Source of the DNA: Bdellovibrionales bacterium
Lineage (GTDB): Bacteria > Bdellovibrionota > Bdellovibrionia > Bdellovibrionales > UBA1609
Direction of reading: 5' to 3'
Length of the DNA: 64,000 nucleotides
Assembly (NCBI GenBank): GCA_965219095.1
Contig: CBDCMT010000001.1
Location: 896,001 to 960,000 of the forward strand
The position numbers were made by a program, and so were the translations under genes. A model generated the notes under the pieces. The model had not been told where the DNA came from and searched no databases. It was given only the letters and a program-made list of their open reading frames with translations. This document shows positions 20,264-58,545 of this stretch, piece after piece; positions within the stretch are counted from its first letter, which is position 1, and every line of letters begins with the position of its first letter.

Positions 20264-20968
20264 TTAGGTTTTAATTCTTTTTGTCTTTGAGATAACAATT
20301 ATAAAACATTCCTTATTCTTTGTGCAGGGAACTTTAATCCACCGCCTCATTTTAATTAAATACCTCCTTTTAACGTTCTCAAGTTTTAATTCTTTAACAG
20401 TATGTGCAGGAATTTTAGGATCAATACTACTATAGACCCTTGGCCCACGAATAAAAACTTCTACTTGAGATAAAATTTGATTTTGAATTTCATTATCCCT
20501 ATCATAAATTTCATACCAAGGATTTCGAATGGTTGTGAGATAGTCATATTTACATTCATGGAGAAACTCAAAATTTCTATGAATCTGTCTATGATCTTCA
20601 GTGTACACTTCTATAACATTACCTTCTTTAATCTCTCTAAAGACTTCCGTAGGAGCAAGTACGTTATACTTATCAAAGAAAATCCTAAGAATCTTAACTT
20701 CTTCTTGATTTCTCAATTTTCCTGTATTCTCTAGAATGGGCTTTAGCTTGATGATCTCCAAATAGTTCCTTGCCTCCTCAAGAGAAGCGATTTGTTTTTC
20801 TTCAGGATCTTCAGAGAATTTTTGAAGAGAGTCAGAGGTGTAAGGGGTAAGGCTATAGCCTCTTCTCTCTAAAATGCTTTGTATTTCTTCAGTCATGAAC
20901 TTCATTTGATCAATATGATCTATGTTTGATGAAATAAAAAGTTTCTGTTTCAATCTTGGTTTTGCCAT
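20264..20968 (-). CDS. Hypothetical protein
   Basis: 234-aa ORF with ATG start; no recognisable motif. Confidence 0.7.
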   Translation of the reverse strand: MAKPRLKQKLFISSNIDHIDQMKFMTEEIQSILERRGYSLTPYTSDSLQKFSEDPEEKQIASLEEARNYLEIIKLKPILENTGKLRNQEEVKILRIFFDKYNVLAPTEVFREIKEGNVIEVYTEDHRQIHRNFEFLHECKYDYLTTIRNPWYEIYDRDNEIQNQILSQVEVFIRGPRVYSSIDPKIPAHTVKELKLENVKRRYLIKMRRWIKVPCTKNKECFIIVISKTKRIKT

Positions 20969-36470: not shown

Positions 36471-37472
36471 ATGAACCAAATCAGAACACTAGTCAAAAAA
36501 CTAAAAATGATAATAAAACAAACGAGATATTTTGTTTTATTAACCCTTATTTTGTGTTTGAACACCTTCGCTGTATCAGTCAAGGCAAACGTATTAAAAG
36601 AAAAGAAGGGAGAGGAATTTAAAGAGCAAGCTATTTATTATGGCAATACTCATAAATGCAGGATAGCAGAGCCTATTGAAGGAGAAAATAGCTCTGATAT
36701 TTTGTGTTCCAAAAACCCCAAGACAAGCACGTTAAAAGAAAAGAAGGGAGAGGAATTTGAAGAGCAAGCTATTATTTATTATGGCGATACTCATAAATGC
36801 AGGATAGCAGAGCCTATTGAAGGAGAAAATAGCTCTGGTATTTTGTGTTTCAAAAACCCCAAGACAAGCACGTTAAAAGAAAAGAAGGGAGAGGGATTTG
36901 AAGAGCCAACTATTTATATAAGTAGCGATATTTATAAGTGCAGGATAGCAGAGCCTGGTATTTTGTGTTTCAAAAACTTCAAGACAAGCACGTTAAAGGA
37001 TATCTATTATGGCGATTATAAATGCAGGATAGCAGAGTCTGTTGAAGGAGAAAATAGCTCTGATATTTTGTGTTCCAAAAACCCCAAGACAAGCACGTTA
37101 AAAGAAAAGAAGGGAGAGGAATTTAAAGAGCAAGCTATTTATTATGGCAATACTCATAAATGCAGGATAGCAGAGCCTATTGAAGGAGAAAATAGCTCTG
37201 ATATTTTGTGTTCCAAAAACCCCAAGACAAGCACGTTAAAAGAAAAGAAGGGAGAGGGATTTGAAGAGCCAACTATTTATATAAGTAGCGATATTTATAA
37301 GTGCAGGATAGCAGAGCCTGGTATTTTGTGTTTCAAAAACTTCAAGACAAGCACGTTAAAGGATATCTATTATGGCGATTATAAATGCAGGATAGCAGAG
37401 TCTGTTGAAGGAGAAAATAGCTCTGATATTTTGTGTTCCAAAAAGAGGGAAAAAAAAGGCAGGTTTAGATAA
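36471..37472 (+). CDS. Secreted tandem-repeat protein with seven Cys-pair units
   Basis: Signal-like FVLLTLILCLNTFAVSVKA then repeats of YY..KCRIAE...ILC.KN.KTST. Confidence 0.8.
   Translation: MNQIRTLVKKLKMIIKQTRYFVLLTLILCLNTFAVSVKANVLKEKKGEEFKEQAIYYGNTHKCRIAEPIEGENSSDILCSKNPKTSTLKEKKGEEFEEQAIIYYGDTHKCRIAEPIEGENSSGILCFKNPKTSTLKEKKGEGFEEPTIYISSDIYKCRIAEPGILCFKNFKTSTLKDIYYGDYKCRIAESVEGENSSDILCSKNPKTSTLKEKKGEEFKEQAIYYGNTHKCRIAEPIEGENSSDILCSKNPKTSTLKEKKGEGFEEPTIYISSDIYKCRIAEPGILCFKNFKTSTLKDIYYGDYKCRIAESVEGENSSDILCSKKREKKGRFR
36594..37443 (+). repeat. Seven imperfect coding repeats (105-141 bp) with a 363-bp higher-order duplication
   Basis: Units of 46, 47, 40, 35, 46, 40 and about 30 aa; AAGAGCCAAC at 36901 and 37264. 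Confidence 0.92.
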
Positions 37473-45936: not shown

Positions 45937-46554
45937 GTGAATATGAGATCTATTTTTATTTATTTTTTGTTTTTATTTATGGTTCCTTTTTCCGTTCACG
46001 GTATAAAAGTAGGTACGTATTTCGTTGGCTTTGATTGGGTAAACTTTCATGAAGTGGATAAAAACCAACTCTATCGAGCAGCCCAAATGGATCCAAAGAT
46101 ATTGCAGGAGACTATAGAAGACTATGGCATTCAGACGGTAATAAATTTAAGAGGAGCAAAAGAACATAAGAAATGGTACCGAAAAGAGGTGCAAGTAGTG
46201 GAGGATACGGGTGTTGAGTATATTAGCATTAGAATGAGGGCAGGGACTCTTCCTAGAAAGGAAAACTTGGTGGAGCTTTTAGATGCATATAGGAGTGCTC
46301 CTAAGCCTATTTTAATTCACTGTGAGTCGGGAGCAGATAGAACAGGAGAAGCTGCAGCTCTTTACCAGATAGAACATATGAATATTAGCAAAAAAAAAGC
46401 TTCTAAGAAGTCCCTTTCTATGTACTATGCTCATATTGCTTTCCTTTGGCCAGCAAAAAAGTATTTTGTGGAAGAAGTGTATCAGGACTATAGGTGGGCT
46501 GTCGAAGAATATGATCCTTGTGCATACTCTTTTGCTCCTAGTAGTTGTGAGTGA
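45937..46554 (+). CDS. Secreted protein-tyrosine/dual-specificity phosphatase family protein
   Basis: Signal peptide, LYRAAQ, TVINLRG, HCESGADRTG. Confidence 0.88.
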   Translation: MNMRSIFIYFLFLFMVPFSVHGIKVGTYFVGFDWVNFHEVDKNQLYRAAQMDPKILQETIEDYGIQTVINLRGAKEHKKWYRKEVQVVEDTGVEYISIRMRAGTLPRKENLVELLDAYRSAPKPILIHCESGADRTGEAAALYQIEHMNISKKKASKKSLSMYYAHIAFLWPAKKYFVEEVYQDYRWAVEEYDPCAYSFAPSSCE

Positions 46555-46581
46555 AAACCTGTGAGCCTGTAAAGAATCGTT

Positions 46582-47373
46582 TTAAACTGATCTTTTTTCT
46601 AAAACTTCTTCTTGTTTGAAAAAAGATTTTAATCGTACTCTAAGCTTCTGAATGGCTTGAGCATGAAGCTGTGACACACGACTTTCTGTAACTCTTAAGA
46701 CTTGTCCAATTTCTTTTAATCTTAGTTCTTCGTAGTAATACAGAACTAAGACAAGCCTTTGTCTTTCAGGAAGTTCATTGAGTACTCTTGTAAGAATTCT
46801 TTGCAAAGCTGTCATATCAAGAGATAGATGAGGGTTACTCATCTTACAAACTTCTAAAATGCTCATAAGAGACTTTTTATCCACGTTGCTGTAGGTTGAA
46901 GGTTCATCAATTGATAAAATACTGATCGGCCTAACTGCATTAACTAGTTCGTAATACTGATCAAGACTTAAGTTCATATAATCAGCAATTTCTTGATCAG
47001 TAACATATCTTCCTTTTTCCATTTCTAAATCAGAAACAGTTTTATCTAAGTGCTTAGCTTTATCTCTCAAAGAACGAGGAACCCAGTCCTTAGATCTTAA
47101 TTCATCTAAAATTGCTCCACGAATACGAAACTCAGCATAGGTTTTAAACTTGTTTTTTCTTTCAGGATCGTATTTTTTCACAGCATCCATAAGCCCTATA
47201 ATACCACTGGAAATAAGATCATCGAGTTCAATGTTAGATGGCAATCTTAAAGCGATCTTTTGAGCCACAAACCTTACAATAGGTGCATACTCTAAGATAA
47301 TGTCTTCTAGATCCTTGTCTGTAAGCTCTTTATTCTCCTTGAGTTTTTTCTCTAAAAGATCTCTTTTTGACAC
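46582..47373 (-). CDS. fliA: Sigma-28 (FliA/WhiG family)
   Basis: RLPSNIELDDLIS.G.IGL, FKTYAEFRIRGAILDELR..DWVPRS, VTESRVSQLH. Confidence 0.96.
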   Translation of the reverse strand: MSKRDLLEKKLKENKELTDKDLEDIILEYAPIVRFVAQKIALRLPSNIELDDLISSGIIGLMDAVKKYDPERKNKFKTYAEFRIRGAILDELRSKDWVPRSLRDKAKHLDKTVSDLEMEKGRYVTDQEIADYMNLSLDQYYELVNAVRPISILSIDEPSTYSNVDKKSLMSILEVCKMSNPHLSLDMTALQRILTRVLNELPERQRLVLVLYYYEELRLKEIGQVLRVTESRVSQLHAQAIQKLRVRLKSFFKQEEVLEKRSV

Positions 47374-47520
47374 AACTCCCCCCCTTTCTATAAGTTTAAA
47401 AAGAAATTTATAAAATTAAAAGTCCTGAACAAGGCTAGAATCTATCTAGACAACAGCCTAGAAGCTATAACCTACTTAATATATGTCATTTTTTTAATTT
47501 TTAAGATTTTTTTGTGTTTT

Positions 47521-48672
47521 TTAAAGCATCTCATTATGAGACACTTTTGGGCTTTTAGATAAAAAGTTATTTTTAAAATCTGCGAATTCAAAAATCAAAC
47601 TGACAAGCCTTTCTTTTTGAGCTTTTTCAAAGCTATGGGGAATTTCAGGGCCTGAACTAAAGGAATGAAGGGGGCTTTGAAAGTATCTTTGAAAGTTGAA
47701 CATCATACCATAGTTATGCACTTGATCTAGATAAGAAAAGATCACATCATCAAAGCAAAAAAGAGCTTTATAGCGACCAGCTGTCTTGAAGCCTTGTTCT
47801 TCCTTTTCTTTTAAAGACTGAACAAAATGTACAGTGTATCTTATATTTTCAGGGGGAAGAAGACGCTTTAAGGAGCAATAAGCTAACTCATCTTCTAAAT
47901 CATAACTGGGACAATCCGTTAAAATGCAATCAAAATGCTTGAGCTTTTCATAAGCCTTATACCAATCTGAGGGCTTGCGAATCACTCCAAAGGGAACTTC
48001 TAGAGCTTGAGCATGGCGTTTTAATTGTTCAGTATTCTCTTCACATAAAGACAAAATCCCTATTTTCTTTCTTTGTTTTTTAAGTGCATAAGCATATTTA
48101 ATTAAGCAAGTAGTTTTTCCGCTTTTTTCACCTCCAACAAAGCACTGAAAAAGGTTTTTGTCAGAATTTGCTATCTCTATTTGACTCATAATATACTTAC
48201 AGACTTGAGCTTTCACTAAAGATATATTTCTTAAAAGATGTCTTGGCGTTGTCGCTTCAACAGATTTGACAATTTCAAAAGAGTACTCTGGACGAATGCC
48301 AGAGCAAATCATCTGTTTAAAAATTTTTTCAACCAACCTTGAAGGATCGTAATTAGAGTCATTTTTCTGAATATGATAGTTTTTTAAATGAGACTTTAAA
48401 ATAGAAAGCTCTTTTTGTAGCTTCAAAAAACCCTGTTTTTCTTCTTTTTGTTTTTCCTGCTCCATAAGATAATTATAAGAAAGTGCTTGTGGGGAGGTTT
48501 TTAGAGCCTTTTTATGATCCACAGCAGTGACTTCAACGCTTCTCTCCCCTGCTAAACCAAAAGTTTTTTTGTATTCTTTTATAGAAAGTACAATAGCCTC
48601 ACTTCCCATTTCTTTTTTTACAAGGCAAAGTGCATCCTTTAAACTCTTTGCTTCAAATTTTCGAATCTTCAT
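47521..48672 (-). CDS. flhF: FlhF-like protein with degenerate GTPase motifs
   Basis: MKIRKFEA..L..AL..VK.EMG.EAIVLS N-terminus; GGEKSGKTT; position after flhA. Confidence 0.85.
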   Translation of the reverse strand: MKIRKFEAKSLKDALCLVKKEMGSEAIVLSIKEYKKTFGLAGERSVEVTAVDHKKALKTSPQALSYNYLMEQEKQKEEKQGFLKLQKELSILKSHLKNYHIQKNDSNYDPSRLVEKIFKQMICSGIRPEYSFEIVKSVEATTPRHLLRNISLVKAQVCKYIMSQIEIANSDKNLFQCFVGGEKSGKTTCLIKYAYALKKQRKKIGILSLCEENTEQLKRHAQALEVPFGVIRKPSDWYKAYEKLKHFDCILTDCPSYDLEDELAYCSLKRLLPPENIRYTVHFVQSLKEKEEQGFKTAGRYKALFCFDDVIFSYLDQVHNYGMMFNFQRYFQSPLHSFSSGPEIPHSFEKAQKERLVSLIFEFADFKNNFLSKSPKVSHNEML

Positions 48673-50431
48673 CTTGTTTTAGCTTTTGAGAACTCCTCTT
48701 TATTCTTTCTTTAACATTTTTTAAAAGCTCTTCTTGATTTGAAGAAAACTCTATTTCCTCAGAAATAATTTCAAAAATCATAAAAGCTTCTCTAATAGAG
48801 CCTTCCTCTTCCAATAAAGTTTTTAAAATATAAAAAAGCTGTGTCATAGAAATTTTTTCAGGAATCAATTCAGAACACATATAAGGCTGATCTATCTTGA
48901 TTCTTTCAAACCATTTTTTAGCCTCTAAACGAGTAAAAAGCAAAGCCGCATGGGTCTGCAAAACATGTTTTATGCGATAAGACAGCACTTGTTCAGGTTG
49001 AAAAACACGACATCCTTGAAGGGATGCTTTTTTTTCATCATCTTTAGAAATCCAATAGCTGGGAAGCCCCCAAATAGGTTCACTTGATTCAAAGCCGCAA
49101 AAAAACTCCAAATGCCTCTCATCCTCTATTAGAACAAGAAGTCTTCTTACAGGAATTCTTTCTTCGTAAATTACTTTTCCTTTGATAAAAAGTCTTACTT
49201 CTCCTGTTTTTAAATCCAAATTATCTCTTATTTGAATAAAAGGAATTTTATACCCCATGGAACGGCACAATTCTTTGCGCACACGAGAGAGTTCATGTAA
49301 AAAAGAAGATAGACAAGGAGTCCAATCATACGACATCTGTATTTCTAAAGGACTTGTGCTAATAAGCAAATGATCTTGTTTTTCACTTTGTAAAAAAGTA
49401 GATGAAGATTTTTTTTCTAATTGTTTTATAGATCTTAAGAGAAAGGGGGGCTTTCTTATTTCCGAAACCTCACTTTCTTTCTTAAAAGATGAGAGATAGG
49501 CTATAAGAAATAAACTGACAGAGGTTGTCATAAACAGAAAAACCGGAACTCCTGGTAAAAGACCTATGAACATCAAAATAAAGGCTACAGAATAAATAGT
49601 TTTAGATTGAAAAAGCTCTTTACTTAAAGTTTTAAGCAAGGTCTGAGAGCGACGACTTCCTGTAATTAGGATACCTGCTGAAATGGAAATTAAAACAGCC
49701 GGTATCTGATTGGCCAAACCGTCTCCTATAGTCAACATAGTGTAATGATTTGAAGACTCAGAGAAACTCAAGCCTTTTTGAAAAACACCAATAACAATAC
49801 CTCCTACAAGATTTAGAGCCATAATACAGAGGCTTGCTATAGCATCTCCCCTCAAAAATTTACTAGCACCATCCATAGCTCCATAAAAATCAGATTCTCT
49901 TTCAAGATTTTCTCTTTTCTTCTGTGCTTGTTCTTCTGTAAGATGGCCTGCTTTAAGTTCTGATTCAATAGACATTTGTTTTCCTGGTAAAGCATCAAGT
50001 GTAAAACGAGCTACAACCTCTGCAACTCTCTGAGATCCATTAGAAATCACAATAAAATTTACAAGAACAAGGGTTAGAAAAATCACAAAACCAATGACAA
50101 TATTATTATCACTCACAAGATAACCAAAAAAAGAAATAATTGATCCCACAGCTTCTGTTCCATAATGGCCTTCTGTGAGAATCTTCCGTGTCGAAGCCAC
50201 ATTCAAACAAAGTCTAAAAAAAGTTGTCAAAAGCAATAGCACAGGAAAGACGCTAAAATGAGAAAAATTTTCTGATTTGACCGTCACAATAAGAACGAAC
50301 AAAGAAAAAGTCAAAGACATCATTAGGCCTATGTCTAAGGCTAAAGAGGAAACGGGAAATAGCATAAAGAATAAAGAACTTATGAAAAGGCCTATCATAA
50401 ACATCTCTAAGAACTGAAATCTTTTGATCAT
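48653..50431 (-). CDS. flhA: Flagellar export gate protein FlhA, C-terminally shortened
   Basis: RL.LNVASTR, RVAEV.ARFTLDALPGKQM, FYGAMDGASKF.RGDA, LTIGDGL..QIPA, IRDN; 592 aa. Confidence 0.93.
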   Translation of the reverse strand: MIKRFQFLEMFMIGLFISSLFFMLFPVSSLALDIGLMMSLTFSLFVLIVTVKSENFSHFSVFPVLLLLTTFFRLCLNVASTRKILTEGHYGTEAVGSIISFFGYLVSDNNIVIGFVIFLTLVLVNFIVISNGSQRVAEVVARFTLDALPGKQMSIESELKAGHLTEEQAQKKRENLERESDFYGAMDGASKFLRGDAIASLCIMALNLVGGIVIGVFQKGLSFSESSNHYTMLTIGDGLANQIPAVLISISAGILITGSRRSQTLLKTLSKELFQSKTIYSVAFILMFIGLLPGVPVFLFMTTSVSLFLIAYLSSFKKESEVSEIRKPPFLLRSIKQLEKKSSSTFLQSEKQDHLLISTSPLEIQMSYDWTPCLSSFLHELSRVRKELCRSMGYKIPFIQIRDNLDLKTGEVRLFIKGKVIYEERIPVRRLLVLIEDERHLEFFCGFESSEPIWGLPSYWISKDDEKKASLQGCRVFQPEQVLSYRIKHVLQTHAALLFTRLEAKKWFERIKIDQPYMCSELIPEKISMTQLFYILKTLLEEEGSIREAFMIFEIISEEIEFSSNQEELLKNVKERIKRSSQKLKQDEDSKI

Positions 50432-51087
50432 TTTCTATTCCTCATTTTGTTTTTTATGAAACTCCACCGACCAGCTTCTTTCATTTCCCTTCTAGCTTCG
50501 TAATAAGAGACAAGGAGATCTTTTTGATACTCATAGTAGGAACAAATCTGATCTAAGGCAGATGATAGAAAAGACATTCCTAAGAAGAAAATTAGAATAT
50601 AAAAGATAGATGTTTTTACAAAAGTAATTTGATCTTCTATAGAAGAGGTTGCAAAAAGTCCAAGCTCTAAAGAAAGCAAATAATTTATAAGAATGACAAC
50701 TAAAATCATGAAAAGGATCCACTGAAAGAGAAGAGAGATAAGCTTTTCTTTGTTTTCTAATTTCAACTTTATAGGCTTAAAAAAACTTTTCTTAAAATGA
50801 AAACCTTTAGTAAAATGCTGGAAAAGAAAATGCATAACCCAAAAACTTACAAAGGGACTTAAGATTAACAAAAGATCCGAAAAACTTATGAATAACATTT
50901 TATTCCAAGACCTAGGATCTATAGATTGTTTTAAAATTTCGATAATTTTTGAAAAATAAATATCAGAAAACTTCATAAAAAAAATAAGCAAAAGAAAGCT
51001 AAAAACAGTTGACCAAGAACGAGAAAAAAGCTCTCTTTTTTCTTCTTTAAATTGCTTTTCCTTTAAAAAACTTTTATACTGTTTCAT
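50428..51087 (-). CDS. flhB: Highly diverged FlhB lacking the cytoplasmic switch domain
   Basis: Four hydrophobic segments, ends with D...YEYQKDL.VS..E.RREMKE-like linker; between fliR and flhA; no NPTH. Confidence 0.75.
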   Translation of the reverse strand: MKQYKSFLKEKQFKEEKRELFSRSWSTVFSFLLLIFFMKFSDIYFSKIIEILKQSIDPRSWNKMLFISFSDLLLILSPFVSFWVMHFLFQHFTKGFHFKKSFFKPIKLKLENKEKLISLLFQWILFMILVVILINYLLSLELGLFATSSIEDQITFVKTSIFYILIFFLGMSFLSSALDQICSYYEYQKDLLVSYYEARREMKEAGRWSFIKNKMRNRK

Positions 51088-51088
51088 A

Positions 51089-51805
51089 TCACACTACCTT
51101 CATCCAATAGAACATTCTCTCTAAAGAAAATTGGATTAAGCTATTTACAAAGTCTGATAAAAAAGGAAGGTAAGTTAAGAAGATAAAGAGAAAAGCTCCA
51201 AAAGCAAGCATTGTATCAGAAAGAAAAGTTCTCAAATAAGGAGACCATCGGTAAGTCAACAAAGTTAAAACTCTAAGAAGGAAAATACATATGACAAAAG
51301 GCAGGGACAGTCTCAATCCTATCTCCACAATTTGCTGAAAAAATAAAGACCAACTAAAACCATCAAAGTGAATCCAGTCATTTGATATAGGTAAAAGTTC
51401 GAAACTTTTCAAAAGAGCTGAAACAAAAGCATAATGTCCGTTTAAGCAGAAAAACAAAACTGTGATCAAAATAATTTGAAAATCGGAAAAAATATCCTCT
51501 CCTTCTATTTGATGGTGAAAAAAGGTAGCCTGAATCAAATTTCCTGAAATATGAGAAGCTACAAAAAAAATACGACTTAAAAACCCTAGAGAAAAGCCAA
51601 TAAAAATCTCTTTAAAGCCTATCCAAAAAAGACCTGTTTTTGGCAAGTGAGGTGTTTCCTGAATCAAAAGAGGGAACAACATAATCGAAAGACCAAAAGC
51701 TAATGTAAATTTAATAAAAAAAGATACCCTGATTTTATCAAAAACAGGCCAAATCATAAGAAACGTCAACATACGCAATGAAATGAAAAAAAAGGACTCC
51801 ATCAC
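51089..51805 (-). CDS. fliR: Flagellar export protein FliR (diverged)
   Basis: R......PVF, KEIFIG..LG, NGH, SFELLP; synteny. Confidence 0.85.
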   Translation of the reverse strand: MMESFFFISLRMLTFLMIWPVFDKIRVSFFIKFTLAFGLSIMLFPLLIQETPHLPKTGLFWIGFKEIFIGFSLGFLSRIFFVASHISGNLIQATFFHHQIEGEDIFSDFQIILITVLFFCLNGHYAFVSALLKSFELLPISNDWIHFDGFSWSLFFQQIVEIGLRLSLPFVICIFLLRVLTLLTYRWSPYLRTFLSDTMLAFGAFLFIFLTYLPFLSDFVNSLIQFSLERMFYWMKVV

Positions 51806-52077
51806 AGGGGAACTCCTTTGAGTGAAGGAATTATATGAAATATCTCCTTTGTAAATTCTAGAATCATATCAAACATCCAAGGGCTTAGAACTATAAGGAC
51901 TATAGAAAGAACGATAACTTTGGGTACAAAGCTTAAACTTGCTTCTTGGACCTGGGTCATGGCTTGGAAAAAACCTAAAAGTAAACCTACAGCTAAAGAT
52001 GTTACTAGTAAAGGAGAAGCTAACATAGCTGTCACTTTAAAAGCCTCTTGAGTTAAATTCAACATAATATCTTCCAT
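51802..52077 (-). CDS. fliQ: Flagellar export protein FliQ
   Basis: FQAMTQVQEASLSFVPK, PWM. Confidence 0.95.
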   Translation of the reverse strand: MEDIMLNLTQEAFKVTAMLASPLLVTSLAVGLLLGFFQAMTQVQEASLSFVPKVIVLSIVLIVLSPWMFDMILEFTKEIFHIIPSLKGVPL

Positions 52078-52084
52078 AAAACCT

Positions 52085-52786
52085 CTAATAAAAACTCTTT
52101 ACAAGAGCGTCTGTTAACAAAGACCATCCATCAACAAATAAAAACAACATAATTTTTAAAGGTAAAGAAATAGTAAAAGGTGATAAAGCCATCATACCCA
52201 TAGACATAAGGAGTCCTGCCACAACTAAGTCAATAATAAGAAAAGGTATGTAAATGATAAAACCTATTTGAAATGCGGTTTTCAATTCAGAAAGGACAAA
52301 GGCTGGCAGTAAAGCCATATTTTTTTCTTCTTGATCTTGTTTTTTACTTAGTTTTTGAAACAATTGAAGGTCTTGTGGTCTTGTTTGATTCAGCATAAAA
52401 GCTTTCAGAGGCTTAAAGCCTTCCTCTAAAGCTTCTTTTTGAGAAATTTTTTCTTCAGCATAAGGTTGGAGGCTTTTGTTATAGATTTTTTCAAAAGAAG
52501 ATGACATGATGAAAAATGTGAGAAGCAAGGACAAACCTATAAGAAGCTGGTAAGGTAAAAGTTGGGAAAGACCTAAAGCTTGTCTTAAAAAAGAAAAGAT
52601 AATAATAAGGCGGGTAAAGCTTGTCATCATAATTAAAGCAATAGGTATGAGGGCTATCGCTACAAAGTTCATAACAACCTTTAAAGAACCTGCTATATCT
52701 TGGGAGTGATCGAGAAAAGAAATCAAATCCCCAGCCCAGGAGGTCAAAGGAAAAAACAGAAAAAGTAGAAGTAATTTTATTTTCAA
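52085..52786 (-). CDS. fliP: Flagellar export protein FliP
   Basis: MTSFTRLII...LRQALG, PAFVLSELKTAFQIGF, SMGMM.L.P, LP.K..LF..VDGW. Confidence 0.96.
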   Translation of the reverse strand: MKIKLLLLFLFFPLTSWAGDLISFLDHSQDIAGSLKVVMNFVAIALIPIALIMMTSFTRLIIIFSFLRQALGLSQLLPYQLLIGLSLLLTFFIMSSSFEKIYNKSLQPYAEEKISQKEALEEGFKPLKAFMLNQTRPQDLQLFQKLSKKQDQEEKNMALLPAFVLSELKTAFQIGFIIYIPFLIIDLVVAGLLMSMGMMALSPFTISLPLKIMLFLFVDGWSLLTDALVKSFY

Positions 52787-52787
52787 T

Positions 52788-53744
52788 TCAAGACACCTCT
52801 TCTGTAAATTTCAGCTCACTGTATTTATGAGGAGCTACTTCACAAGATGTCTGTTCTTTTTGAGTGTGATTTTTTAAAGGGCTTTGAGAGGGAAGTTTTT
52901 TAAGAAAAGATATATTATAGTCAGTAATTCCTAAAAGTAAAAACTCATCACCAATCTTCACAATAGATAAACTTTTTTTAGTACCTAAATAGTGCTGGTG
53001 GATGATTTCCATAGAGTAATTTTTGTTTTTGAAAAGAGGAGGGGTAAAAACATTCTTTTTTTTCCAAAATAAGAGCAAAAGCGTTCCTAAGAGAAGAAAA
53101 GATAAGAGTCCAAAAAACTTAGACAAAAAAGAAGATTGCTTATGGTTTAAACTTTCAAGTTTTGAAGGTTTTTTTAGCTGTAAGGCTTTCTGTGATGAAA
53201 ACTCTTGTGAGGGGTTTTTTTTTGAAAGGACTTTTTTTCTGAACTTCTGACTGTTCTTTGTTGTTTTCCTAAACTTTGATTCCCCCGTTCTTTTTAAACC
53301 CTTTGTTGTAGCTAAAAGAGGTGCTGTAAAAGAACGGTTTGCACCTTGTTTAATAGCTATACGGAGCATATGAGAGCTAAAAGACAGATTGACTTTTCCT
53401 GAAAAATCTTTCGCTTGGAACTTTTTTTGATAAATGATCCGAGTCCTTAATATTTTTTTATTGAATTGATAAATATAAATACTTTTTACTTTGTCATTTT
53501 TTATTTTTTTTACAAACGGCTTCTTTAAGAAACCTCCAGGAATGTTTACCTGAACAGTCTGGTTAATGTAATCTACAGAAACTTTTTCAAAGTCTATGGT
53601 GTTATCGAAAATAAGCTCAGTAATAAACCAGTCTTTTTCTTGATAGGAATAAAAGTCTTCAAGATAGGATGTTTCCAAAAGAGAGGCACTTGACAAGGGA
53701 AAGTAGAAAAAGACTCCTAAAAAATATATGATGAATTTAAACAT
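52788..53744 (-). CDS. fliO: Long FliO-type protein with periplasmic N-terminal domain
   Basis: DYINQTVQVNI, TM helix, QHYLG.KKSL.IVKI..E.LL.G.TD.NI. Confidence 0.8.
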   Translation of the reverse strand: MFKFIIYFLGVFFYFPLSSASLLETSYLEDFYSYQEKDWFITELIFDNTIDFEKVSVDYINQTVQVNIPGGFLKKPFVKKIKNDKVKSIYIYQFNKKILRTRIIYQKKFQAKDFSGKVNLSFSSHMLRIAIKQGANRSFTAPLLATTKGLKRTGESKFRKTTKNSQKFRKKVLSKKNPSQEFSSQKALQLKKPSKLESLNHKQSSFLSKFFGLLSFLLLGTLLLLFWKKKNVFTPPLFKNKNYSMEIIHQHYLGTKKSLSIVKIGDEFLLLGITDYNISFLKKLPSQSPLKNHTQKEQTSCEVAPHKYSELKFTEEVS

Positions 53745-53770
53745 AAGCCCTCCTAGCTTTATTGGTTGTA

Positions 53771-54352
53771 TTAAATTCTCTTAAAATTTTTCAAATAAAC
53801 TTGAACAATTTCTCCTTTTGTTAGAAACTGATTTAATCGTGTTTTTATTTTATCCTGTATGAGGTTGACTTTTCTTTCATTAGAAAAATCTGAAAAATCT
53901 GTTTTAGATAACATCATGAGAGAAAATTTTCTTATTTGGTTTTCTGTATTTTTAACCTCTTTTTTAGCAGAATCTTGATTTAAATAAAACTCTACATCCA
54001 AACGGGCTATTTTTTTTCCTGATGAGGAGTTTAAATGTAGTAAAAAATCAGACAACTCAAGTTTAGGACCCTTATGATGAAGTATGATAAAATCTTTCCT
54101 CAAAATTTGATCCGTAATGACAAGTTGCTCATAAGACACCGATCGATTCCACTGAAAGTAAGTTAAAATTAGAAACACAACAATGACTTGAGAGCTTAAG
54201 AAAAGAGAGAGCTTTTTTTTGTTCTCTGAATCGGATTTATTCTCTGAAGGGATGTTGTAGCCAGACTTATAAGCTTCTAGCTTAGAAGCTGTATTATGAC
54301 ACTCCACTTTATAAGCACAGTTATGGTTTTTTTTCATACACTCAAACCTCAA
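53771..54352 (-). CDS. fliL: FliL-like protein
   Basis: Single TM; L..F...L....GKKIA, QIR......LS, N.FLTKG.I..VY. Confidence 0.75.
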   Translation of the reverse strand: MRFECMKKNHNCAYKVECHNTASKLEAYKSGYNIPSENKSDSENKKKLSLFLSSQVIVVFLILTYFQWNRSVSYEQLVITDQILRKDFIILHHKGPKLELSDFLLHLNSSSGKKIARLDVEFYLNQDSAKKEVKNTENQIRKFSLMMLSKTDFSDFSNERKVNLIQDKIKTRLNQFLTKGEIVQVYLKNFKRI

Positions 54353-54513
54353 TACTTCATTTTACTCTCCGTAGAGAAGAACTACCATAGAGCTTTCGGA
54401 CAAAATGCTTGATTTCTTTACAAAAACAGTCTCTTTGTCTTATTAAAATAGACTTTTGTGCCCGCTGTCTTAATTTTGACAAGCTTTCCTAATCAAGCTA
54501 TACTTTAGTCCTA

Positions 54514-54990
54514 GTGTTGATTCAAAAGACGTTTTTACATTTTCTTTTTCTCCTTTTTTTCTTTTTTTGTTCTTTTTGTCTAGGAGTGTACTGGAGGGAG
54601 CTTGTTCGACCCTCTCAAGCCACCTCATCTAAATCATATCCCCCCCAGTTGCAACAAAAGTTTAGCTCTTCTAAAACTAGGGCAGGTTTCTCAAAATTGC
54701 AAAAAAAATCAAAACCTCAAACCCATTCTCTTCAAAAGAAAAAAAACTATACCCTGCAAATAGCCTCTTATAGGGATGAAAGAGATGCTGTTTACCACAG
54801 TCTTTCGCTAAAGTCTCAAGGCTATACAGCGTTTTATAGAAAAGCCCTTATACGAAAAAAAACATGGTATCGTGTGTTTATGGGTTTGTTTGACCATTAC
54901 CAAGAAGCACGCACTTTTAAAAACAAACTTATAAGGAAAAATAAATTAAAGGAGGCTTTTGTTTTTAAACTTCATGAACCATCACTCTAA
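54514..54990 (+). CDS. SPOR domain protein
   Basis: TM anchor; YTLQIASY, WYRVFMG.F. Confidence 0.85.
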   Translation: MLIQKTFLHFLFLLFFFFCSFCLGVYWRELVRPSQATSSKSYPPQLQQKFSSSKTRAGFSKLQKKSKPQTHSLQKKKNYTLQIASYRDERDAVYHSLSLKSQGYTAFYRKALIRKKTWYRVFMGLFDHYQEARTFKNKLIRKNKLKEAFVFKLHEPSL

Positions 54991-57256: not shown

Positions 57257-57498
57257 CAAAACAAAAAGGGAACAAAATTTTGTCATTTTGATCTTAAAAA
57301 ATCAAGCTACCTAACCCTTTGAAATTTAAGACAAAATAAAACAGTAGCAAAAAACTGTTTTACTTTTTAACAACTGATCATATTTTTTACATGTCCTTTT
57401 TCTTGTTTTTCATCAATCATTTCAATAAGTTAAAAATTCTATGGATTTTTTATTTTTTGGCCTTATTTTTGAAGTTCTTAAAAGTAAAGGAGGTTTTT

Positions 57499-58545
57499 AT
57501 GAAAAAATCAAGTCCCATATTTTTAAGCCTTATGACTTTAGTAGCTTTTAACCTATGGTTGGAGCAAACCCCTACAGGAGGAACTGAAATGTTCTCTGAA
57601 TCTGAATGTCCTGAAGAGAATACCTTCACTTCAGAAGACGGAAGGAAATTGTGTTGGGATCCAACTCTAGAACAAGCTACTACGTGTACAGACTGTACAA
57701 ACGCAAAATCGTCAGTTAGGATCAGAGGAGGAATACTTCTTCGCAAAGGAGAGTATTTTACACCCTTTGATGAAGATAAAGTAAATTATGAAGAAATTTG
57801 GCCTGATAAACTTGAAGCCTGTTTTGAAGAAGACTTTTCCGAAGAAGCTAAAAGAACACTTATTAGCCTTTCTAGAATTAATGACGAAAGCCTATCGAGT
57901 AAAAAAGAGGAGTACAAAAAACAACTAGAAAACATCGAAGAGACCTTGAGGGAAGCAAAAAGAGAGGAAGTAAAGAACTTTGATTTCTTTGACGATACAG
58001 AAGATGATAGCTTTAAAGAGAAAGGGAGTGAAATTTGTGCAGGACAAATTGTGCATCTTATGAGTAAAAAAACAGTTGATTGGACTAAAAATCAAAGGTG
58101 GATCAAGGCTCTAAAGACAAAATTTTATAATATTTCTAAGCTTCATAATTTTGCAAAAAAGGTAAGTAAAGAAAAAATAGCTCTTAGTAAAATTAAAGAT
58201 ATTAAAGGCTACATAAATCAAAGGTCTAAGATAGATCAAATAGAAAAAGAACTCTATCAAATCTTTGTTAAAACAGAGGGTAAAGATTTCAAAGATGATT
58301 CTTTTAAAAGTCTTATTTCACAGGTAAAAGAAAATATTAATGATGGCATGATTAGACTTAAAGATGATCTTTTCCACAATAGGTGGGGAAATAATGGAAA
58401 TAGGCGGGAAAATAATGGGAATAGGCGGGAAAATAATGGGAATAGGCGGGAAAATAATGGGAATAGGCGGGAAAATAATAGGAATGAAAACAACTCTAAT
58501 AACCTTTCTCCTATATCTCGCCCTAATAATTTGAGGCCTTTGTGA
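57499..58545 (+). CDS. Hypothetical exported protein with C-terminal NNGNRRE repeats (likely start MKKSS)
   Basis: AAGGAGG RBS before ATG 57499; hydrophobic N-terminus. Confidence 0.72.
   Translation: MKKSSPIFLSLMTLVAFNLWLEQTPTGGTEMFSESECPEENTFTSEDGRKLCWDPTLEQATTCTDCTNAKSSVRIRGGILLRKGEYFTPFDEDKVNYEEIWPDKLEACFEEDFSEEAKRTLISLSRINDESLSSKKEEYKKQLENIEETLREAKREEVKNFDFFDDTEDDSFKEKGSEICAGQIVHLMSKKTVDWTKNQRWIKALKTKFYNISKLHNFAKKVSKEKIALSKIKDIKGYINQRSKIDQIEKELYQIFVKTEGKDFKDDSFKSLISQVKENINDGMIRLKDDLFHNRWGNNGNRRENNGNRRENNGNRRENNGNRRENNRNENNSNNLSPISRPNNLRPL
58390..58473 (+). repeat. 21-bp coding VNTR, four copies
   Basis: AATAATGG(A/G)AATAGGCGGGAA x4. Confidence 0.92.

Follow-up and report, generated by a model that had tools for sequence, protein, structure and literature searches.

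Organization of the fliL-fliA operon

In this study, we analysed a window of 64,000 nucleotides from a Bdellovibrionales bacterium (assembly GCA_965219095.1, contig CBDCMT010000001.1, positions 896,001 to 960,000; the genome is referred to as G000) that carries an operon for a flagellar-type protein export gate. Nine open frames on the minus strand at 46582-54352 have the order fliL-fliO-fliP-fliQ-fliR-flhB-flhA-flhF-fliA, and profile searches assigned every product to its own NCBIfam or Pfam family, some of them below the cut-off. The gaps, in gene order, are 26 (fliL-fliO), 1, 7, -4, 1, -4, -20, and 147 bp (flhF-fliA), with 4-bp ATGA overlaps at fliQ/fliR and flhB/flhA. A gene-order comparison with motile relatives indicated that fliM-fliN and flhG occupy in those genomes the gaps left empty here, and genome-wide searches yielded no orthologue of FliM, FliN, or FlhG. 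The gene order, the open frames, the tight junctions, and these absences had been claimed in a preliminary description of the window, and all were confirmed. Assembly error was ruled out as the cause of the missing genes because a Logan contig built from short reads, which may come from the source sample, spans 46400-54532 with zero differences, and further runs in the same study gave shorter contigs in which several operon junctions are identical. The four sequencing runs, all from that single study, gave no variants for a ratio of nonsynonymous to synonymous polymorphism (pN/pS).

The following coordinates are all on the minus strand. A predicted FliA (sigma-28) promoter of the operon lies at 54394..54420, with one mismatch to the Bdellovibrio consensus. 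It precedes fliL (53771..54352; 193 residues from the first start, one membrane helix; PF03748 over cut-off) and fliO (52788..53744; 318 residues; PF04347 over cut-off, TIGR03500 below), whose product has a periplasmic N-terminal domain and is, by family, the assembly chaperone of FliP. The export pore is encoded by fliP (52085..52786; 233 residues; TIGR01103 over cut-off), fliQ (51802..52077; 91 residues; TIGR01402 at cut-off), and fliR (51089..51805; 238 residues; TIGR01400 with an E-value of 6e-21, below cut-off). These are followed by a truncated flhB (50428..51087; 219 residues; positions 22-235 of 335 in PF01312), a truncated flhA (48653..50431; 592 residues; positions 2-557 of 657 in PF00771), flhF for a signal recognition particle (SRP)-type GTPase (47521..48672; 383 residues; TIGR03499 below cut-off), and fliA for sigma-28 (46582..47373; 263 residues; TIGR02479 at 259 bits, over cut-off).

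The membrane domains of FliP, FliQ, FliR, FlhA, and FlhB together make up an export gate of flagellar type. FliP, encoded by a single-copy gene, scored 238 bits with the flagellar model TIGR01103 versus 168 bits, under the cut-off, with the injectisome model TIGR01102, and FlhA scored 542 bits with the flagellar versus 421 bits with the injectisome model; FliR and FlhB fall below their flagellar-model cut-offs. In alignments, the methionine loop of FliP is nearly intact and FliR has a short deletion in the loop region. FlhF has a shortened B domain and eroded GTPase motifs, and its N-terminal 58 residues are retained at 55% identity. Genes like fliL, fliO, and flhF persist in relatives without a gate and therefore say little about it; fliL itself is among those retained.

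Around the operon, 17 kb of sequence are free of repeats. This freedom from repeats and insertion sequences (ISs) is weak evidence because half of the unique bases sit in stretches of at least 7.8 kb. Repeats with at least three copies (613 blocks) make up 35% of the genome, an extreme IS expansion. Codon-position GC across the operon was not clearly informative.

Domain losses in FlhB, FlhA, and FliF

Three proteins of the system are shortened, and the losses in FlhB and FlhA go beyond what the preliminary description noted. FlhB retains four membrane helices, as judged from hydropathy, and ends about 21 residues short of the autocleavage Asn of the NPTH motif, which lies near position 248 when residues are numbered as in solved FlhB; the whole cytoplasmic switch domain is gone. 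A search for homologues of this protein returned only the query itself. In FlhA, residue 579 aligns to residue 584 of a solved 692-residue FlhA and the chain ends 13 residues later, and a predicted model (mean predicted local distance difference test score, pLDDT, 62) could be aligned with structures of the FlhA cytoplasmic part over 221 columns. The alignment end point and this match indicate that FlhA keeps its membrane domain and D1-D3 and is without D4; structure comparison of the model places the D1-D2 chaperone dock among the retained parts. At residues 366-370 the conserved GYXLI hinge reads SYDW, both here and in the metagenomic FlhA P0007 described below, a shared change that would be in keeping with lost D4 motion.

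The C-terminal end of FliF binds FliG. What remains of FliF in G000 is RBM1-2, two membrane helices, and a short conserved cytoplasmic motif; RBM3 and the C-terminal end are missing. No separate gene for any of the domains missing from FlhB, FlhA, or FliF was found in the genome. Each trim drops the domain that faces a lost partner, namely FliK and early substrates, FliJ, the rod, and FliG.

Flagellar genes elsewhere in the genome

The genome (3.11 Mb, 2 contigs, 34 tRNAs) is 94% complete. Pfam searches found no flagellin, FliM/N, rod-hook protein, FlgI, MotB, FliG, or CheW in it, whereas control genomes scored. A second inventory with profiles built from four motile relatives found no FlgB-E, FlgF-L, FlgN, FliC, FliD, FliS, FliE, FliG, FliH, FliJ, FliK, FliM, FliN, MotA, or MotB. 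The FliI profile matched nothing but three paralogous ATPases, taken to be F1 subunits and Rho, and the FlhG profiles nothing but ParA/MinD-like proteins. In G000 we thus found no rod, L/P rings, hook, filament, or stators, no FliH-FliI-FliJ ATPase complex, and no C-ring (FliG, FliM, FliN), which leaves no sign of a complete flagellum or of a basal body of the Buchnera type. A flagellar set relocated elsewhere, or a second cluster, for which the preliminary description had proposed a whole-genome check, did not turn up in the profile searches either.

Flanking genes point to clean deletions at three flagellar loci. A full-length flgM (92 residues; contig C2 1439340-1439618, minus strand; PF04316 over cut-off) adjoins slt as in motile G025, whereas flgF-flgJ and flgN-flgL, one group to either side of it, are missing. 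The losses are not due to the 6% incompleteness because flgM still stands beside slt with its other neighbours cleanly gone. It is the sole survivor of the flgF-flgL cluster, and the shortened fliF (316 residues; C2 1413298-1414248, minus strand; identified by profile search and alignment) is the sole survivor of its own. FlgM is the only known flagellar export substrate left in G000. A FlgN/FliT-like gene (C2 1124655-1125065, plus strand) is a lead only. Also kept in the genome, without flagellin and far apart, are fliW and a csrA-like gene (C2:1973718-1974224 and C2:1607651-1607884).

This inventory bears on what the gate might export. The three secretins sit one each in the loci for a type II secretion system (T2SS), for PilMNOPQ of type IV pili (T4P), and for Tad pili; neither a dedicated injectisome secretin nor an SctN-type ATPase was detected, and no separate needle search was made. 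With no axial protein, ATPase, or linked secretin, cargo could reach the periplasm only, and the general type III secretion system suggested in the preliminary description lacks support because nothing would carry cargo further. A narrower version, minimal secretion of new non-flagellar cargo to the cell's own periplasm and perhaps onward to the T2SS or pili, would suit a complete membrane core under selection, the kept chaperone dock of FlhA, the FlgN/FliT-like gene, and a genome of host-associated appearance. We consider it improbable, as there is no ATPase, needle, rod, or linked secretin, no candidate cargo lies beside the operon or fliF, and the FlgN/FliT-like gene is also present in the gate-less genomes G103 and G028.

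A CORE-type platform (FliO, FliP, FliQ, FliR, FlhB, FlhA) for membrane nanotubes, a disputed model, or for contact exchange would find all six of its six genes here. Nanotubes are reported to depend on CORE genes without requiring FliI, rod, or flagellin, and some species that carry CORE and hardly anything more are named (PMC6456723). Such a platform has no call for FliF, for FlgM, or for trims towards a late-substrate mode, and we regard it as very improbable.

Order-wide, FlhA was found in 227 of 274 good genomes and FlgI in 226 of 274. When the lists were compared by eye, FlhA occurred without FlgI only in G000, G334, and G235, and the latter two were rejected as similar gate-only genomes, both carrying rod and hook genes. 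A weak FliP match in G036 is ATP synthase subunit a, and a short FlhA in G099 reflects a contig end and not a trim. G000 is the only genome with a trimmed gate seen among the 274 good genomes of the order.

Sequence constraint and metagenomic relatives

Proteins with the same trims were found in metagenomes. FliF P0002 (ENA, 320 residues, 46% identical) is shortened like the FliF of G000, and FlhA P0007 and P0157 (ENA, 587 residues; P0007 57% identical) are shortened like its FlhA. When conserved columns were defined from 135 full-length FlhA proteins, 83 of 99 family-conserved columns were unchanged between G000 and P0007 versus 244 of 467 variable columns (p=2.6e-9), a pattern indicating that FlhA is under constraint after truncation. 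Two ENA relatives of FlgM are 68% and 71% identical to the G000 protein. At the N-terminus, which we take to bear the export signal, they share 17 and 15 of the first 31 aligned residues with it, and two motile relatives share 14 of 36 residues with each other. Sister-lineage DNA was not found in two scans of JGI metagenomes. A further FlhA, P0010 (626 residues, on a 65.6-kb ENA contig), ends after D3 and is 37% identical to that of G000, with no close genome among 384 genomes of the order; an independent origin of the same trim is possible.

Divergence ratios of G000 relative to the distances among three motile relatives were 2.1 for RpoB, 2.0-2.6 for FliP, FliQ, and FliR, 2.2 for FlgM, 1.9 for FlhF, and 2.7 for FliA, and FliL evolves fastest at 4.3. 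By these ratios, the pore appears to evolve at the rate of the lineage and the trimmed parts faster. The suggestion of the preliminary description that selection keeps the membrane gate while the C-ring is gone is borne out by the absence of a second cluster or motile set and by the constraint on FlhA.

Slow decay would explain the operon as a relic kept between fliL and a needed fliA under a shared promoter, with the gate-less genera as the end state. In favour of decay, FlhB is only 19% identical to its relatives, and FlhB, FlhA, FliF, and FliL evolve faster; the relatives G030 and G024 keep other odd subsets of flagellar genes, 35% of the genome is multi-copy repeat, and a weak RpoB tree places G000 near the gate-less genera. 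RpoB trees are poorly resolved, with one outgroup landing inside the family. Against decay, the frames stay open over 43-54% protein divergence with conserved columns spared, fliF is unlinked yet kept and trimmed identically in P0002, and the divergence ratios of FliP, FliQ, and FliR (2.0-2.6) resemble that of RpoB (2.1). In addition, gate-less genera cut the gate out cleanly, leaving fliL adjacent to fliA, so that linkage does not force retention. We therefore consider decay unlikely.

FlhA, FliF, and FlhF might instead form a scaffold or sensor that marks the cell pole or senses membrane potential without export. The retained N-terminus of FlhF would fit this, as would a FliF that keeps its conserved cytoplasmic motif and loses the FliG-binding end, and Chlamydia has FlhA and FliF of similar sizes, 583 and 342 residues (PMC2830194). 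A scaffold leaves unexplained the housekeeping-like relative rates of FliO, FliP, FliQ, and FliR and the conserved N-terminus of FlgM, and seems to us quite improbable.

FlgM and FliA across the family

Both FliA and full-length FlgM of G000 score over the cut-off (TIGR02479, PF04316). In the family, FlhA is present in 46 of 83 good genomes. Eleven gate-less genera with 46 genomes, which represent a few related lineages and not independent trials, have no FlgM in 35 genomes, a weak match in 10, and a full-length protein in 1. The ten weak matches begin 18-62 positions into the 103-position profile, and the five of these open frames that were inspected encode 69-87 residues without the N-terminal part. 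Such short, C-terminal-only FlgM genes stand beside csrA in gate-less L111, L112, L114, L115, and L116 (genera g29 and g19), and their products are possibly non-exported anti-sigma factors.

The predicted fold of FliA with FlgM scored 0.52 versus 0.01 for the best control, which is weak support for their binding. At least 75% of contacts were shared among runs, with a partner pLDDT of at least 61. Among reference pairs, 116 of 157 solved ones reached the mark set for such folds, as did 2 of 215 mismatched ones; scores of at most 0.60 accounted for only 18 of these passes among the 157 solved pairs but for both of the mismatched ones. Because this is a textbook pair, the score may reflect likeness to solved structures.

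The genome G030 is a mirror case (L109:7712-12726, L108:4658-5964). It has fliL-fliM-fliM/N-like-flhF-flhG-fliA with a sigma-54 site, a flgF/G-like gene, and a full flgM, and has cleanly lost fliO-flhA; no FliF, FlgI, or CheW was found in it. G024 retains fliL, a fliM-like gene, and fliO. In gate-less, flagellum-less genera, fliL adjoins fliA (L120, L121, L122, L123, L126), down to genomes of 1.2 Mb, which suggests a non-flagellar role for FliL. The family forms a graded series of flagellar loss, with the gate kept, the C-ring kept, short FlgM only, or FliA only, and is useful for asking how the attack-phase regulator of Bdellovibrio was uncoupled from motility.

FliA-type promoters

In B. bacteriovorus the attack phase is under the control of FliA (PMC3627812, PMC5430801), and the motif TTAAG-N16-CCGATA occurs at 92 of 140 attack-phase promoters (PMC3627812); fliA also drives the Tad operon, and its deletion was not obtained (PMC5430801). 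We scanned 2,801 upstream windows of G000 with T or A allowed at position 2. The exact motif at spacing 16 was found in 8 windows; none of 13 other spacings gave more than 1, and the value in shuffles was 0.25. One-mismatch sites numbered 20 against a shuffled mean of 6, and about a third of them may thus be chance. An exact site lies upstream of pilA and of the genes for a response regulator, a diadenylate cyclase, and a PilZ-like protein; upstream of a TadA-like ATPase gene, cpaB, another response regulator gene, and the fliL operon, the site carries one mismatch. A site of what we take to be the sigma-54 consensus stands before fliL in five of five motile relatives and in G030; none was found there in G000, which has the FliA-type site in its place.

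For seven of the 20 FliA-type sites, just 7-11 bases separate the end of the site from a start codon, which suggests leaderless sigma-28 transcripts. A 234-residue gene without a Pfam match is duplicated together with a FliA-type promoter (window 20264-20968, minus strand, and C2:1287592-1288296). Elsewhere in the window, a gene for a dual-specificity phosphatase with a signal-peptide-like start (45937-46554, plus strand) converges on fliA, and repeat-bearing proteins without a known family are encoded at 36471-37472 and 57391-58545 (both plus strand), with Cys-containing long repeats and short Asn/Arg repeats.

Proposed mechanism

We propose that the gate was retained as a flagellum-free switch that exports FlgM to control sigma-28, and not as an effector pipe, a reading that we hold to be about evenly poised between right and wrong. 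That FlgM is the sole surviving flagellar substrate indicates a regulatory use. The reading also draws on the survival of flgM and fliF alone from their clusters, the match between lost domains and lost partners, the recurrence of the trims in metagenomic proteins, the shared N-terminal residues of the FlgM relatives, the rarity of full-length FlgM in gate-less genera, and the FliA-type promoters, among them the one that stands in for a sigma-54 site before fliL. The fuller proposal, for which we judge the chances to fall slightly short of even, is an export machine solely for gene regulation: an ATPase-free, C-ring-free, late-locked, membrane-potential-gated life-stage switch, its operon rewired from sigma-54 to sigma-28, and the smallest natural type III exporter. 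FliO would help to build the FliPQR pore inside a ring of FliF RBM1-2, and a gate lacking the FlhB switch domain and FlhA D4 would stay fixed in late-substrate mode, with no hook or FliK required; neither FliK nor FlgE was found in G000 for a hook-completion trigger. Proton-motive force alone would power export of FlgM to the periplasm and so free FliA to transcribe pilus and signalling genes, the gate genes, and its own gene. This positive feedback would make a self-reinforcing life-stage switch in place of the hook-completion checkpoint.

Parts of this scheme have experimental precedents. In Salmonella deprived of the rod, the hook, and the remaining late substrates, FlgM-Bla reaches the periplasm independently of FliK, provided that Fluke and the FlhB C-domain are lost, for example by a stop at 258 (PMC13344023). 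The closed form of FlhA blocks late substrates and depends on D4 contacts, and FliJ binds between the D4 domains (bioRxiv 10.1101/2022.03.25.485897). The ATPase can be dispensable for export (PMC4230889, PMC7911332). A V404-equivalent change in FlhA was dropped as an ATPase bypass; V404M is described as aiding FliI binding (PMC7911332). By analogy, G000 looks like a natural end point of the mutants in these studies.

Several observations weigh against the FlgM-export switch. FliA is present in all 83 good genomes of the family, gate or none, and 46 gate-less relatives live without a gate. G030, with full-length FlgM and no gate, is a real counter-example, and the short FlgM of 10 gate-less genomes indicates that cells can deal with FlgM in other ways. 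In G000, no FliA site turned up upstream of flgM. The metagenomic FlgM, FliF, and FlhA lie on separate contigs and are not linked to one genome, the column comparison for FliF, made with four references, did not reach significance (p=0.12), and FliF, FlhA, FlhB, and FliL have divergence ratios of 3.3-4.3 versus 2.1 for RpoB, with FlhB poorly conserved as noted above. FlgM export in Salmonella needed flhDC overexpression, with C-ring and ATPase present, and the FlhB of G000 ends about 10 residues before the shortest working allele named in the available text (PMC13344023). Open-close cycling of FlhA is also reported to be needed for efficient export (bioRxiv 10.1101/2022.03.25.485897).

If the switch proves real, a machine has outlived its organelle because the regulator that it controls became indispensable. 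It would then offer a natural test of the minimal parts for type III export, of whether FlhB C-domain removal and FlhA opening make up the whole specificity switch, and of whether export lasts without ATPase and C-ring.

Comparison with known systems

Host-associated Buchnera has basal bodies with export genes and no filament or motor, and keeps rod, rings, hook, and ATPase. G000 differs in having none of these parts, and hence no channel to the outside, which leaves the preliminary likening to such basal bodies unsupported. The injectisome regulators ExsE and LcrQ are inhibitors whose export turns on transcription. Their export reports on a working organelle, whereas G000 has no organelle left. 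Relative to a CORE platform, G000 adds the trimmed FliF and the FlgM/FliA pair, and its FlhB and FlhA are cut.

Chlamydia is, like G000, non-motile and has sigma-28, with FlhA and FliF of 583 and 342 residues versus 592 and 316; in contrast to G000, it keeps FliI and has a separate injectisome (PMC2830194). Flagellar FliPQR, FlhB, and FlgM go unmentioned in the available text of that paper, and the likeness is one of size. We found no prior description of a comparable system in the literature covered, which left out most subscription journals and supplements; Table S2 of the CORE paper may list similar gene sets (PMC6456723). Sponge Bdellovibrionota without flagellar genes have been reported, and the available text mentions no retained gate (PMC9944714).

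The closest likeness is to the Salmonella mutant described above. Both have the gate core, FliA, FlgM, and an FlhB without its cleaved domain, and neither would need rod, hook, FliK, or other late substrates; the mutant sends FlgM to the periplasm, the destination also proposed for G000. G000 differs in being natural and long-lived, in lacking also the C-ring, the ATPase complex, FlhA D4, and the outer part of FliF, and in the non-flagellar targets of its FliA. With FliA, full-length FlgM, and sigma-28 promoters all present in G000, the system would, by analogy, work like the FlgM/sigma-28 checkpoint, but it is neither a flagellum nor a basal body nor an injectisome.

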